64,000 bases of DNA from assembly GCA_037443365.1 (NCBI GenBank), contig JBBIOM010000001.1:65693-129692 (forward strand), written 5' to 3'. A program made the position numbers. Positions 31,001-37,000 of the stretch are shown here, in pieces (within the stretch, counting starts at the first letter, position 1; each line of letters begins with the position of its first letter). Origin of the DNA: Armatimonadota bacterium. GTDB lineage: Bacteria > Sysuimicrobiota > Sysuimicrobiia > Sysuimicrobiales > Humicultoraceae.

Positions 31001-34000
31001 CCACCACGCCTATGGGACGCGCCTCATCCTCCCAGGGCACGACGAACAGGTCCACCGGGGCCAGGGCGGCCAGCGCCGCTTCAAGACGCGCAGGGGCGCA
31101 TATCTCGGGGCTGTCGGCCCGCCCGCACTGCCGGGCCGCCTCCAGCGCTACCCGGCGCCAGCGGTCGAGGCGCGACGAACCCGGCTCCGTCACCGTGCGG
31201 TCCGTCAGCACCGGGTGGATGCTCGACAGGCCTATCTCGGTGCCCATCCTCACGATCAGGTCCATCTTGGCGCCGCGCGGCACGCCCTGGAGCAGCGCGA
31301 TGTCCACCGGCCGCCGCGCCACGCAGGGCGCCGCTACGCGCCGGGCAACCACGCCGGACCGACCGGCCTCGACAATCTCCACCTCTGCCTCGCGCTGCCC
31401 GTCGAAGGCCACCAGCCTGGCGCCGGGCCGCAGCCGCAGCACCCTTGCGATGTGGTGGGCTTCGCGCGGCGCGAAGGCGAAGGACTCCTGATCGAGCGCC
31501 TGTGGCGGCGCGTAGAAGCGCCGCATCAGGACCTCCTCGCTACGCCGCGCACAGCGTGCACGGCGCACCAGCCCCGTAGCGCCTCTATCCTCCCCAAGCG
31601 CAGGCCGGCCGCCTTGACCAGGCGACTAACCTCCGCGACGCGCGCGCGGCCGAAGCCGCTCCCCACGAAGCGGCCGCCCGGAGCCAGGCACCGCACAACG
31701 TGGGGAAGGACTCCGACCAGAAGCTCGGCCGTGAGGTTCGCCACGATCAGGTCCGCGCGCAGACGCACGCGCCCCAGGCCCCGCGCCCGGCGCACCGTGA
31801 CGCTGTGCGCCACGCCGTTCGCGCGCGCGTTGGCCCGCGCCACGGAAGTGGCGATGGGATCGTCGTCTATCGCCAGCACGCGCCGCGCGCCCAGGCGGGC
31901 GGCCGCTATGCCCAGGATGCCTGAGCCGGTGCCCAGATCGAGCACCGTCTCCCCTCCCGTGACATGCCGCTCCACCGCGGCCAGGCAGAGCCGCGTCGTG
32001 GGATGCTCTCCGCTGCCAAAGGCCTGACCGGCGTCGAGCCGCACCAGCACCTGCCCGGGGAGCGCCTGCGGCCGCGTCCGTGTCGGCGTCACCACGAGAC
32101 GGCCGACCCGCACCGGTCTGGCGTATCTGTGCCACGCGCCGGTCCAATCCGCGTCGTCCACCACGCGCGTCGCCGGGGCGGCTGAGCCCACCCGGCGCTC
32201 TAGCTCGCGCCAGAGCCGGGTGAGGGCAGCGCGGCCGGCCCTCGTACAGGGCAGGTATGCGCGCAGGATCCGGCGGCTTCCTCCCCGGGCCTTGTCCTCA
32301 CAGAGCCCGGACGGGCAACAGCGCAGCAGGCAGTCACCCGCTGCCTCAAGATCCGAGCGCGGCACTTCGAGGGAGATCTCGATCCAGCGCAAGACGGCAG
32401 CCTGCCGGTCAGACCTGCTCGAGCAGGTCCTTCATCTTCTTGAGAATCGGCTTGCGCCTGCCCGATCGCTTCTTGTCTTCGGGTTGGCGCTCGCCGCCCA
32501 GGCGCGCCAGCTCCTCGAGCAGCGCCCGCTGTTGCGGTGTCAGATGCGTCGGGATCGTGACCCGGGCAGACAGGTGCAGCCCGCCCCGGCCGCCGCGCAG
32601 ATCGGGCAGCCCCTTGCCACGGACCGTGATCGTCGCGCCCGGCTGCGTGCCGGCGGGCACCGTCGCGAAGACCGGTCCGTCGAGACCCGTTATCTCGATC
32701 TCGGCGCCCAGCGCCGCCTGCGTCACGGTGACCTCCAGGTCCCGATAGAGGTCGCGCCCGCGCCGGGCGAACACCCGGTGCGGCGCGACGTGGACCACGA
32801 CAAACAGGTCGCCGCGTCCGCCCCCGCGCACCCCGGCCTCGCCCTCGCCGGCCAGGCGCAGGTGCATGCCGTCCTCTACGCCGGCAGGGATCGTAACCGT
32901 GATCTCCCGCCTGGCCTCTGACTGACCCGCGCCTCGACAGTTCGCACACGGATGGGCTATGTACGTGCCTGTCCCCCTGCACTGCCCGCAGGTCACCACC
33001 TGCGTGAGGTGACCGAAGATCGTGCGGGCGGCGTGGCGGACCTCCCCGGTGCCATGGCAGGACGGGCAGCGCTGCGGGCTCGAGCCCTGCTCGGAGCCGG
33101 TACCGAAGCAGGCCGGGCACGTCTCGAGGCGTTCCACCGCGATCCGTCGCTCCGCGCCCGAGACGACCTCCTCCAGTGTAACCTCAAGATCGTAGCGCAT
33201 GTCGGCGCCGCGCACAGGCCCTTCCCGCTCGGACCCTGCCGCCCTGCCGCGACCGCCGAAGAACATCTCGAACAGGTCCTCGAAAGGACCGACACCGCCC
33301 CCAAACGGGCCGGGCTCTGATCCCACGAAGCCAAACCGGTCGTACTGGCTCCGCTTGACCGGGTCGCTCAGCACCGCGTAGGCCTCGTTCACGTCCTTGA
33401 ACCGCTCTCCGGCCAGGGGATCGTCGCGCCGGACGTCCGGATGCGTCTCACGCGCGAGGCGGCGGTATGCCTGCTTTATCTCGTCCTGCGTGGCACGGCG
33501 GTCAACGCCCAGTATCTCGTAGAGGTCCCTGGTGTCTCCGGAAGTCATCTGTGCTGATATGCCCGCCTGAAGAAAGCCGCCGGCCTAGGCCGACGACCTC
33601 ATTGCCTCGCTGAGACCCTCGGCAACGTGACGCACTGCGGCGACCGTGCTGCGGTAGCGCATCCTGGTGGGCCCTATCACGCCGATCGTACCGCAGCGCT
33701 GCTCGCCCGCGCGGTAGGCCGTCATGACCAGACTGCACAGACGCAGCTGCTCGAGCTGATTCTCCTGCCCGATGAAGATCCACACGCCCTGCTCGGGTAC
33801 CGAGGAGAGCACGCGCTCGAGCAGCGGCTCGTTCTCCAGGATCTCGAACAGCCGGGTGGCCCGGTCCGGAGTCCTGAACTCCGGCTCGGCCAGGAGGTGA
33901 CGCGCACCGGCCACACGGATCTGCGACCGGGCGCTCCTTGCCAGGTCGCGCAGCAACCAGGCCCTGACCTCCTCAAGCCAGCGGTGCTGGCGCGAGGCCT

Positions 34001-37000
34001 CGCCCAGCACCTGCTCCAGCCGCTGATAGGTTAGGTCGGCCACCCTGGTGCCCCGCAGGCGGTAGGTGATCGCCCTCGACAGGTGCTCAAGGTCGTCGGG
34101 CGCGACCCCGTCCGGGAGCTCGACCGGGTGTCCCAGCAGCGCGCCCGAGTCGGCCGCTATCACGGCCAGGGCGCGACGCTCACCCATCGGGACCAGATGC
34201 AGCGACGCGAACGCCTGCGCCTGCATCCTGGGGGCCGCCGCGACCGACGCGTAGCCGGTCATGCCTGCGAGCAGCCGCGCGGCCTCGCCCACGACACCAC
34301 CGGGCTCCTCGTCCGGGGCGCCCAGCCGGCGGCGAATGCTCTCGGTGGCCGGGCCCCCAAGCGGGTCGGCCTTCGGCAGCATGTCAACGTAGACGCGGTA
34401 CCCCCAGTCCGTGGGGATCCTGCCGGCGGAGGTGTGCGGGTGCGTCAGCAGGCCCAACTCCTCCATGCTGGCCAGCGCGCTGCGGATCGTGGCAGGGCTC
34501 ACGCTCAGCCGCCCCCGCAGGGCGGCGTGCCTTGAGCCCACGGGCTCGGCCGTGCGGACGTGTTCCTCCACGACCGTGCGGAGCAGGATTCGCCTGCGGG
34601 CGTCAAGTCTGAGCATGCGTCCACCTGAGGCTGGCACTCGTCTGCCCTGAGTGCCAGCGAGCGCTCTCAGCGTAGCATCGGCGTTTTTGGGGTGTCAAGG
34701 AACAGGGCGAGCCTCTCCGCGCCGCAGAAGGCCGCGCACCAGATTCAGTTCCTCCGCGCGCAGCAAGGCGCACACGATCAGGTACGTGACTCCCGCCGCC
34801 CCAAGGCCGGCCGCTATGAGCAGCAGGTCGGCGCGCTCCGTCACGCGTCCATCTATCAGGCCGCGCTGCGCGATCATCCATCCCACCCACACCGCGGCCA
34901 GGGCCGCGGCCAGCACGCGCGCGGCAGACCGGGCAATCCGCCCTGCCCCCAGCGGCCCCAGATCCCTCGCCAGCATCCAGAGCAGCAGCCCCACGTTCGC
35001 GAAGGCCACCGCGGCGGATGCCAGGGCGATCCCTGCCACGCCCACCACGCGCATGAACGCGTAGGCCAGCACCGCGTTTAGAAGCACCATGGCCGCGCCG
35101 ATGGCCACCGGCGTGCGCATGTTCTTGAGGGAGTAGAAGGTCCGGGTGACGACGTAGTATGCCGCCACCGGCACCAGGCCCACCGCGTAGGCAGCCAGAC
35201 AGGCAGCCACCACCAGGGTCGCCGGCGGCCCGAACTCGCCGCGCTCGAAGACGACCTGGACCAGCGGACGGGCAAAGACAATGAGGCACAGCGACACCGG
35301 GGCCGTCAGGAACAAGAGACTGCGCAGTCCGAGCGATGCCATCTCGCGCAGCGCCACCCGATCGCCGGCGGCGGCGAGCCGGCTCATCCCGGGAAAGAGC
35401 ACCGTCGCCACGGATATCGCCAGGACACCCACCGGCGCCTGGACCATCTCATAGGCGTAGTCGAGCGCCGCAACCGCGTTCACGCCAGAGGCAACCGGGA
35501 GGAGCGAGGCCAGGAACCTGCCCACATAGGCGTTGATCTCCACGATGGCCAGACCCAGCATCGCCGGGGGCGCCAGACGGAGCAGCGTGCGGATGACGGG
35601 GTGCGACCAGTCGAATCCCAGGCGGTAGCGAAACCCGGCCGCGTGCAGAGCCGGCGCTTGCACCAGGAACTGAACGGCGGTCCCAGCCACCCAGGCGGCG
35701 GCCAGCCCCGCAATCCCCATGCGCGGACCCAGTAGAACCGTCCCGGCGATGATGGTGAGGTTGAAGGCCAGCGGGGCCATCGCCGGCGCGGCGAACCTGC
35801 GAAGCGCCTGCAGGTATGCCGTGGCGAACACCGCAAGGGCCAGGAAGAACATCGCCAGGAAGTTGATCCTGGTCAGCGCGATCGTGCGGATGAACTGCGC
35901 TGGATCAGCAGCGAAGCCAGGCGCAGCCAGGCGGACCAGCGCGGGCGCGGCGATCTGTCCGGCCGCCACCATCCCCACACCGAACGCCACGACGAGCGCG
36001 AACAGCCGCGAGGAGACCTGGCGCACCTCTGATTCATCCCCGCGCGCGACGGCGTCGGATATGGCCGGGATCAACACGATGCTGAGTGTGCCGCCGATGA
36101 GAAGACGCTGGACGAAGAACGGGACGTAGTATCCGATCACGAAGGCGGCGCGCTCATCGGAGGCGCCGAACAGCGCGGCCACGACTATCTCCCGTATCAG
36201 CCCCAGGGCGCGGCTGCCCACCGTGGCGCCGGCTATGAGCGTGGCCGCGTGCGCAAGGCGCTGCGGTACCCGCCCGTTCAAGATCGGCGCCCTCGCGCGG
36301 CGACTTGTGACGATGGTACCGGCGTGCTAGAATCGCCCAGGACTGCCGCGCCTGATGCGCGGCGGCCGGAGGGATTGGAGTGGCCAAGCGTATCAAGTCC
36401 GGACTCAAGCACCTGCGGAAGTCGGCCAGGCGCGCCCGGGCCAACGTTTCCGTCAAGTCCAGGGTCAAGTCGCTCGTGCGCGGTGGGACCAGCCCGGAGG
36501 CGATCGCGGGGGCGCAGTCCGCCCTTGACAAGGCCGCGGCGCGCCGTGTGATTCATCCCAACACCGCGGCCCGCAGGAAGTCTCGCATGATGCGCCGCGC
36601 CTCGGGCAAGCCCGGCTAGCCCCGGGGAGGAGCCCACCGCTGCGCCGCAGGAGACCTGCGGCCGGCGAGGTTGACGATCAGGGTCTCCAGGGCGAGGCGC
36701 GGAGCGCTCCCTGACTTGACGGCGCGGTCCGCGGCCTCGAGCACGCCGAAGATCCCCGCGAACTGGTCGGCCCTATAACCGCGTGCCTGTTCTGCGATCT
36801 TGCGCGCGACGAATGGCGGCACGCCCAGGCGCGCGGCCAGGCCCTCGGACGAGCGGTCCCCCACGGCGGCCTGCGCGCGGGCGATCAGGCGGAACTGCCG
36901 GGCTATCATGAACAGCACCTGAAGCGGCTCGTGCGTCTCCAAGTTGTCGTGCAGGGCGCGAAGAGCACCGGCCACGTCTCCCCCGCCCACCGCGTCCACC

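Follow-up and report, generated by a model that had tools for sequence, protein, structure and literature searches.

LepA is a ribosome helper thought to be present in nearly all bacteria, and it has long been a puzzle why almost every bacterium, mitochondrion and plastid keeps it though its deletion does little. The locus analysed here raises the question of whether a whole phylum of free-living bacteria does without it and, if so, what makes the loss tolerable. In the window (the entire stretch of 64,000 nucleotides that was analysed) the gene order at 33585-36619 is rpsT-murJ-hrcA, followed by dnaJ and without lepA, as the preliminary description had stated:

37589..40000, minus strand: comEC, an open reading frame that marks the left-hand side of the conserved comEC-holA-rpsT block
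36616..37605, minus strand: holA, DNA polymerase III delta (TIGR01128, 221 bits, cut-off 80)
36380..36619, plus strand: rpsT, ribosomal protein bS20, 79 aa (TIGR00029, 49.9 bits, cut-off 33; frame read)
34695..36281, minus strand: murJ, lipid II flippase (TIGR01695, 335 bits, cut-off 236)
34617..34694, no strand: closed lepA-hemW slot, 78 nt from the murJ stop to the hrcA start
33585..34616, minus strand: hrcA, heat-shock repressor, 343 aa (TIGR00331, 268 bits, cut-off 197)
30804..33548, minus strand: dnaJ-prmA-rsmE, then arginine genes where Bacillota have a methylthiotransferase gene

The gap of 78 nt between murJ and hrcA is too short for either lepA or hemW and holds no remnant of them; it contains a CIRCE-like inverted repeat (34632-34656). 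An identical 343-aa HrcA protein is present in the sequence collection, murJ and hrcA are neighbours in 3/3 related metagenome contigs, and the comEC-holA-rpsT block recurs in one relative's contig and in one Bacillota genome. The lepA slot is filled in two Bacillota genomes, with the orders rpsT-murJ-lepA-hemW-hrcA-grpE (G096) and holA-rpsT-lepA-hemW-hrcA-grpE-dnaJ-prmA-rsmE-methylthiotransferase (G097), so that the usual lepA-hemW-hrcA order given in the preliminary description is now an observed one; G095 likewise carries lepA-hemW-hrcA. A methylthiotransferase was not found in this genome.

The claim that lepA is missing from this genome and from every phylum genome searched now extends to 94 species-level genomes (1.5-5.3 Mb, seven families, 54 of them classed as good) by each of two profiles: the LepA C-terminal domain PF06421 was found in 0/94 genomes and 0/54 good ones (E 0.001), and no TIGR01393 match in the 94 exceeded the cut-off of 533.9 bits, the best score being 201 bits. 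Soil members with genomes of 4-5 Mb are among those without LepA. It could be argued that LepA is present but escaped detection because assemblies are incomplete or its sequence is extremely divergent, since all 94 genomes are metagenome assemblies (the best, G001, in 4 contigs) and profile searches can overlook weak matches. However, completeness predicts LepA in about 84 of the 94 genomes and it was seen in none, the slot is closed, and the same search detects LepA in 10/10 control bacteria, 120/121 genomes of another phylum and 216/237 diverse bacteria. A very divergent LepA, the case named beforehand as a possible refutation, was looked for specifically: the closest look-alikes in the phylum are TypA and EF-G, the 22 TIGR01393 matches above 128 bits coincide with TypA matches (TypA score 787-931 bits), and the GTPases of about 600 residues, candidates for such a protein, are TypA. 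The translational GTPases of this genome have all been identified (EF-G, EF-G2, IF2, EF-Tu and SelB only), and any LepA G domain would still match. An artefact is extremely improbable and already largely refuted.

The second absence in the preliminary description, that of MnmE, also grew firmer, from 0/28 to 0/94 genomes by the MnmE helical domain PF12631, which was detected in 9/10 control bacteria; on contig C9 jag does run straight into rsmG (gidB), the two genes overlapping with no mnmE between them. MnmG, now searched in relatives, gave only FAD-fold background (PF01134 over its length, at most 46 bits) in 93/94 genomes. The one exception is a piece of 53 residues from the start of MnmG that lies at the end of a contig of G023, a genome that is 59% complete; the only taxon-named relatives of the neighbouring gene are Gemmatimonadales, and we take the fragment to be probable, if unproven, contamination and not a true MnmG. 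That LepA and MnmE/MnmG are absent throughout the phylum is thus better supported than was originally claimed. The reported absence of Dus (0/5) does not hold strictly, as 2/94 genomes have Dus, and stands as a near-absence. TrmFO and TrmA proper were not found in this genome, and for this reason the only TrmA/RumA family member that we found is the sole remaining candidate for tRNA m5U54:

47789..49234, minus strand: RlmD-type (TrmA/RumA family) uracil-5 methyltransferase (TIGR00479, 343 bits, cut-off 184; stop-to-stop frame)

How such a genome reads its A-ending codons has a known parallel. Among the lineages studied, MnmE and MnmG are both absent only in Actinobacteria, with the same pattern of codons and tRNAs (PMC6063277), and the genomic features of Actinobacteria-type decoding without xm5U are found here: high GC3 (0.84 over 1,670 composition-picked ORFs), rare NNA codons (A-ending share of the pair 6.8% for AAA, 7.5% for CAA, 18.7% for GAA, 14.8% for AGA and 2.9% for TTA), C34 tRNAs for Lys, Glu, Gln, Arg and Leu, and MnmA, whose match over the cut-off bears out its reported presence; a search with default settings did not find tRNA-Lys(UUU). 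Like the Actinobacteria, this is a GC-rich phylum that lost both MnmE and MnmG and kept C34 tRNAs and MnmA (PMC6063277), but its loss is a second and apparently independent one and is accompanied by the lack of TrmFO and Dus, the latter being kept by Corynebacterium. Alternatively, another enzyme could still add the U34 C5 group, for instance the product of an unclassified gene of the radical-SAM type that sits between aspS and rarA-mnmA, a 413-aa protein encoded two genes from mnmA and without an NCBIfam match at 1e-6. This gene lies on the strand opposite to mnmA, though, and Actinobacteria manage without MnmEG, which makes this alternative very improbable; none of the 12 radical-SAM proteins of this genome is recognisable, on reading, as Elp3-type (radical-SAM plus acetyltransferase).

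LepA is part of a larger pattern that the preliminary description missed, namely the loss of Era, RsgA, TypA, HemW, Dus, MiaB and uL30 alongside it. Era is absent from 50/94, RsgA from 61/94 and TypA from 70/94 phylum genomes, HemW, Dus, MiaB and uL30 are also lost wholly or patchily, and LepA, Era and RsgA are all absent in 40/94 genomes (23/54 good ones), this genome included. Within the phylum, the Era search was positive in all genomes of two families (22/22 and 12/12). Relatives that keep Era have the order corC-DUF502-cdd-era-mgtE, with cdd-era in 4/5 of their Era loci and cdd-era-mgtE in three (one being L061, from the unpublished genome G017); Era was not found in this genome, where the place is closed:

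17154..17250, no strand: closed era slot, cdd running into mgtE (frames read)

TypA occurs only in genomes without Era (0/94 have both), mostly larger ones (median 3.65 vs 2.5 Mb), and the TypA proteins of 23 genomes fall into four groups that are 46-55% alike and as distant from one another as from E. coli TypA. Kept in this genome are Der, ObgE, HflX, YchF, RbfA, RimM, RimP, RsmA, YbeY, bS21 and MnmA; the presence of bS21 rules out that it was lost together with LepA. Compensating rRNA changes were seen neither in 16S h18, h28, h34, h44, h45 and tail nor, in the part of 23S compared, in H69, H89, H90-92 and the sarcin-ricin loop, in comparisons by eye of up to six genomes with E. coli; the functional sites of both rRNAs are ordinary and give no sign of a redesign. 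The reduced ribosome-biogenesis sets found in CPR/Patescibacteria, in Dependentiae and in Chlamydia have likewise lost Era, RsgA and uL30 in a clade-specific manner (PMC12641178, PMC10582724), and this phylum resembles them in those losses and in their clade-specificity. In contrast, most CPR retain LepA and BipA and have often lost Der, ObgE, RimM and RimP, so that this genome (2.2 Mb), with Der, ObgE, RbfA, RimM and RimP kept and LepA, TypA, Era and RsgA lost, is their mirror image and does not match a CPR-type reduced set. A review of Era gives only extremely reduced groups as wholly Era-less, with patchy presence in a few clades.

The preliminary description presented a phylum without LepA and MnmE/MnmG. 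The absence stands, but neither loss is unique: that of MnmEG is known from Actinobacteria, and LepA is missing from 19/237 diverse other bacteria, including three single-contig genomes and 10/13 genomes of another phylum. The two losses are therefore different in kind, one already described and the other recurring in deep lineages. A single deep LepA loss common to all LepA-less genomes is unsupported, as an EF-G tree in which most deep forks are unresolved scatters them. The loss may predate the phylum, for which the literature names Armatimonadota as outgroup; no locus titled Armatimonadota was among the matches listed in a genome-collection scan with the Era alignment. One Streptococcus pyogenes strain lacks LepA (PMC1780047), as does Carsonella ruddii (PMC4342817 supplement), and lepA is found in 99.4% of non-CPR and 91.5% of CPR genomes, leaving about 8.5% of CPR without it (PMC12641178 supplement). 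All these cases agree in that lepA loss is survivable, but they concern a single strain, an endosymbiont and tiny CPR genomes, whereas here it is 94/94 genomes of a free-living phylum of 1.5-5.3 Mb; our literature searches found no published description of LepA loss in a free-living phylum.

LepA loss might be permitted by a replacement. In addition to ObgE and YchF, a 325-aa GTPase of the Obg family with a TGS domain is encoded in this genome (C5:82504-83481), and a DRG/Rbg-like GTPase of this sort could perform late quality control at the factor-binding site. The best solved relatives of the protein are yeast Rbg1/Rbg2 (E 1e-27 vs 3e-14 for Obg), with the N-terminal helical region, Obg-type G domain and TGS domain aligning to Rbg1 (PDB 4A9A, 7RR5) and Rbg2 (7NRC). 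DRG/Rbg-like GTPases were present in 3/3 LepA-less genomes read for them, this one (G000), G331 with a 47%-identical orthologue (0.8 of 1.7 Mb read) and G287 with a full DRG including PF16897, and archaea and the eukaryotic cytosol have the DRG/Rbg family and no LepA. On the other hand, that scan covered only three genomes, all of them LepA-less and one of them from this phylum, and the DRG-like family (552 clusters at E 1e-30) is common in clusters of Aminicenantota, Chloroflexota and Planctomycetota, groups not known to be LepA-less. Furthermore, the PF16897 region, of which the tRNA-contacting domain is part, is missing from the proteins of G000 and G331, whose switch II reads DLPP and whose role in ribosome assembly is putative; the S5D2L insertion within PF16897 and the canonical DxxG switch II are found in the G287 protein and not in that of C5. 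According to a review (PMC8629797), bacteria have no DRG, and Rbg1 makes contact with the tRNA in the A site. What Rbg works on is paused ribosomes, not the maturing 30S. We regard such a replacement as unlikely. Distinctly unlikely is the wider proposal that LepA is not universal but was lost many times among deep free-living bacteria, including a whole phylum, with a DRG/Rbg-like GTPase of bacteria making these losses possible, that LepA and DRG serve as alternatives for a single quality-control step of the ribosome in all three domains, and that 30S maturation in parts of this phylum proceeds without any of the three 30S GTPases known. Still more unlikely is cover by a retained paralogue, either EF-G2 everywhere or TypA where regained: EF-G2 is present in this genome and G001, and the restriction of TypA to Era-less, mostly larger genomes would fit, but EF-G2 has the domain IV layout of EF-G and no LepA C-terminal domain, Dictyoglomus has both EF-G2 and LepA (PMC4342817 supplement), most of the phylum lacks TypA, and the Era/TypA exclusion depends on a few related clades.

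We consider it reasonably probable that the loss is real and ancestral and was tolerated since a hot, slow-growing, GC-rich lineage would need only slight kinetic assistance for decoding and for assembling the 30S; the loss is seen in the absences and closed slots, its timing and cause are what we infer. The phylum ancestor would have deleted lepA with hemW from an rpsT-murJ-lepA-hemW-hrcA block and mnmE-mnmG from a jag-rsmG block, and probably also lacked typA and dus; descendants would then have lost era, rsgA, miaB and uL30 patchily, and some may have reacquired typA from outside. LepA, TypA, Era and RsgA would be kinetic helpers that free late assembly intermediates and are most needed in the cold and in fast growth, and a thermophilic, slow-growing 30S might mature by self-assembly with the non-GTPase factors RbfA, RimM, RimP, RsmA and YbeY, while Der/EngA and ObgE, the two GTPases that the 50S requires, are kept. 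MnmEG would be dispensable on separate grounds: few codons end in A and those ending in G are read by C34 tRNAs, so that the 2-thio group added by MnmA may, like in Actinobacteria, be all that U34 requires. The phylum is predicted to descend from thermophiles and to grow slowly (PMC11962464), the small subunit assembles factor-free in vitro, where EngA and ObgE suffice and LepA is inactive (PMC13278734), and lepA loss in E. coli causes cold sensitivity and is not lethal (PMC4245954). Heat alone is insufficient, as Thermus and Thermotoga (our control genomes) and also Dictyoglomus and Coprothermobacter (PMC4342817 supplement) keep LepA and the large-genome soil members lack it; nor is GC richness a common cause, since the EF-G genes of other LepA-less genomes span 28 to 66% GC. 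Moreover, in E. coli lepA loss aggravates rsgA loss and Era is often essential, which argues against this explanation and for the existence of some substitute.

As lepA, typA and era are standard single-copy markers (marked BAC120 in the PMC12641178 supplement), both the completeness estimated for this phylum and its marker alignments are biased. For ribosome biology, a hot-spring and soil phylum that lost LepA, and many of whose members lack the other known small-subunit assembly GTPases, gets by with fewer helpers than textbooks allow. The loss of RsgA and the usually essential Era on top of LepA in genomes of 2-5 Mb sets a new lower bound on small-subunit helpers, in agreement with the recent reconstitution requiring only EngA and ObgE, and repeated, clade-wide natural losses of LepA in free-living bacteria turn the old puzzle into a comparative question: what changes where LepA goes.

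The source genome of the window (2.22 Mb in 69 contigs, 97.7% complete) yielded eight matches to the LepA model TIGR01393, none of them over the cut-off, and these were identified as EF-G, EF-G2, IF2, EF-Tu and SelB. We extended the search to 94 Sysuimicrobiota genomes from seven families of one order, and neither PF06421 (LepA) nor TIGR01393 over its cut-off was found in any of them (0/94 each; 0/92 for LepA when the unpublished G017 and G025 are left out), as the preliminary description had claimed for every genome of the phylum that it searched. Summed completeness predicts about 84 LepA detections among these 94 genomes, and an EF-G- or TypA-level match was recovered at an E value of 1e-25 in 84 of them. 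Twenty-two TIGR01393 hits of 128-201 bits, considered as divergent LepA, sit on TypA genes (three were scanned directly). We reject an artefact as the cause and are highly confident that the loss of LepA from the phylum is real.

The window encodes comEC, holA, murJ, hrcA, dnaJ, prmA and rsmE on the minus strand, as assigned by family profiles, while the frame of rpsT lies on the plus strand, flanked by holA and murJ. The murJ stop and the hrcA start lie just 78 nt apart, and this gap holds a CIRCE-like inverted repeat. The murJ-hrcA junction recurs in all three related metagenome contigs. The rpsT-murJ-hrcA order in place of the lepA slot is borne out, and the usual lepA-hemW-hrcA order is seen in two genomes titled Bacillota: rpsT-murJ-lepA-hemW-hrcA-grpE in G096 and holA-rpsT-lepA-hemW-hrcA-grpE-dnaJ-prmA-rsmE-methylthiotransferase in G097. 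HemW gave no credible match in the source genome and passed the cut-off in none of five relatives; hemW is lost along with lepA. Those close HrcA relatives that bear taxon names are labelled Armatimonadota or Armatimonadetes bacterium, a common label for deposited CSP1-3 genomes. The bS20 protein of the window (36380-36619) has only 79 residues versus the 84 positions of the model.

LepA has been counted in 190 of 191 genomes (PMC1780047) and in 99.4% of non-CPR and 91.5% of CPR genomes, with era, bipA and rsgA in 97.3%, 96.9% and 83.9% of the non-CPR genomes (PMC12641178); it is described as near universal, missing from Carsonella and kept by Dictyoglomus and Coprothermobacter (PMC4342817). 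Our controls confirm this near-universality in common groups, with LepA in 120 of 121 genomes of the phylum of G094, a genome from outside Sysuimicrobiota. Across 237 genomes drawn from about 200 other families, PF06421 scored over its cut-off in 216 and failed to do so in 21; in two of the 21 LepA is truncated where a contig ends, so that 19 remain, 17 of them belonging to the 216 good genomes of this set. None of the 15 searched with TIGR01393 passed, and in 14 of these a TypA-strength hit was missing as well. Part of the 19 will be assembly gaps, but three are single-contig genomes (G287, 0.79 Mb; G331, 1.70 Mb; G325, 3.35 Mb), and in the phylum that includes G236 LepA is missing from 10 of 13 genomes, making up three whole families. 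In an EF-G tree of 24 rows, Sysuimicrobiota formed one clade (100), loosely joined to two LepA-positive genomes (89), and the 14 other LepA-less genomes included were scattered, most deep forks being open. The loss is not unique to Sysuimicrobiota and, given this scatter, the single contigs and the whole families, it probably happened repeatedly; among the genomes examined this phylum is the largest and only complete case. The single contig of G287 (loci L230-L269) showed no credible LepA, TypA, Era, RsgA, Der, ObgE, HflX, MnmA or TilS, and YchF is present.

Further assembly GTPases are missing. With E. coli protein queries we found no match to Era, RsgA, TypA or EngB in the source genome, nor did Era and RsgA of relatives retrieve anything there; Der, ObgE, HflX, YchF, RbfA, RimM, RimP, RsmA, YbeY and bS21 are kept. 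Across the phylum Era is present in 44, RsgA in 33 and TypA in 24 of the 94 genomes, as judged for Era from the best 23 and for RsgA from the best 32 candidates per genome, a limit that could hide a few. LepA, Era and RsgA are all missing from 40/94 genomes (23 of the 54 good ones), and TypA on top of these from 20/94 (12/54). Era is lost genus by genus, and the window has a closed era slot; in G001, a relative, era is relocated and now precedes greA (C1:2350549-2351433). Era has been described as wholly dispensed with only in extremely reduced groups and as patchy in a few clades (PMC10582724). No genome has both Era and TypA, a pattern drawn from few independent clades. TypA from 23 genomes forms four groups that are mutually 46-55% alike, one of them spanning two families at 84-89%, which fits a regain from outside over inheritance. 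Single E. coli queries also gave no credible match in the source genome to HemN, RNase R, RlmE, RlmH, YhbY, TrmB, TrmL, ThiI, EpmA/B or MnmC, and uL30, found in two of five genomes tested, has no gene in the roughly 50 nt between rpsE and rplO (C19:8555-8608).

The absence of MnmE, with jag running straight into gidB (rsmG), was upheld: MnmE_helical was found in 0/94 phylum genomes and in nine of ten control bacteria (the exception being Corynebacterium), and jag overlaps rsmG on contig C9. MnmG, previously not searched in relatives, is likewise absent: hits to PF01134, a model that covers both MnmG and TrmFO, did not rise above a FAD-fold background of at most 46 bits, except for an MnmG start in G023 (76 bits across the initial 52 positions, where a 4.4-kb contig ends). 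We count this fragment as contamination because all four taxon-named relatives of the adjoining gene, among 120 listed, are Gemmatimonadales; the contig (C196, L030) is probably Gemmatimonadales. The claimed absence of TrmFO stood, and Dus matched in 2/94 phylum genomes (once as a fragment at a contig start, once as a weak hit) versus 83/107 other bacteria. No Elp3 was recognisable on reading the 12 radical-SAM proteins of the source genome, where between aspS and rarA-mnmA there is an unclassified radical-SAM gene that runs on the opposite strand (C4:3656-4897, L221). MiaB was found in three of five relatives and not in the source genome. MnmA is intact there, with no cysteine desulfurase gene beside it, and U34 tRNAs for Glu, Gln, Arg, Leu and Gly are present as described, but the tRNA search found no tRNA-Lys(UUU); C34 partners exist for Lys, Glu, Gln, Arg and Leu. 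The Arg tRNAs include GCG and UCG and no ACG, and a motif scan saw no TadA-like frame. In 1,670 long, composition-picked ORFs, GC3 is 0.84 and AAA, CAA, GAA, AGA and TTA take 6.8, 7.5, 18.7, 14.8 and 2.9% of their codon pairs. Joint absence of MnmE and MnmG has been reported only in Actinobacteria, which share it with this phylum, and such losses are tied to GC shifts (PMC6063277); this half of the finding is an ordinary second case of a known pattern.

The rRNA sites contacted by factors of the LepA, TypA, Era and RsgA type look ordinary. The 23S gene is split by insertions of 0.7-1 kb in the source genome (C25:29391-30110) and in G001, G039, G047 and G069 (L178-L185), near E. coli positions 1923, 1931-1951 and ~2600; these are probably group I introns with homing endonucleases, since the insertion in the source genome encodes a frame with what we take to be a LAGLIDADG-like motif. 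The 16S and 23S genes are unlinked in the source genome (C40 and C25), in G001 (C1:2311867 and 2332120, 19 kb apart) and in G047 (C27:34600 and 42620, 6.5 kb), and adjacent in G069 and G080.

LepA aids late folding of the 30S head and overlaps with RsgA (PMC12787274); lepA loss causes cold sensitivity and aggravates rsgA loss (PMC4245954), and bipA loss impairs growth at 20 C (published abstracts). The small subunit assembles in vitro without factors, and EngA and ObgE, with LepA inactive, replace heat and magnesium shifts (PMC13278734). The phylum is predicted to be of thermophile descent and slow growth (PMC11962464). Heat and a weak demand for speed may have relaxed selection on such kinetic helpers, and the retained set would be what reconstitution found necessary. 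We lean towards this account, whose observed part is the losses and the closed slots, even though LepA is retained by other thermophiles and missing from soil members of the phylum too, and LepA-less genomes elsewhere are not GC-rich (EF-G genes 28 to 66% GC).

It seems unlikely, on the other hand, that a DRG/Rbg-like GTPase replaced LepA and allowed its loss. The source genome does encode an extra GTPase of the Obg family, closest among solved structures to yeast Rbg1 and Rbg2; a full DRG was found in G287, which was read in its entirety, and an orthologue at 47% in the 0.8 Mb of G331 that were read. LepA is absent from archaea and the eukaryotic cytosol, both of which have DRG. A DRG-like gene thus occurs in all three LepA-less genomes read, one from this phylum, which is only a lead. 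However, the family also occurs widely across other deep phyla, and in two of the three DRG-like proteins the PF16897 region is missing and switch II is unusual. DRG has been called absent from bacteria and placed against the A-site tRNA (PMC8629797), and a 2026 preprint has it act on paused ribosomes, with LepA unmentioned in the portion available to us (10.64898/2026.05.13.724932).

We found no report of a LepA-less phylum in the literature searched, which largely excludes subscription papers; a search by name did not find this phylum in the PMC12641178 data, and the word lepA is not found in the main text, as available to us, of two papers on it (PMC11604079 and PMC11962464), whose supplements may hold gene tables. 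Loss of near-universal translation factors is of a kind already known. What is notable here is its scale, its occurrence in free-living cells and the stacking of LepA loss with the loss of Era and RsgA.
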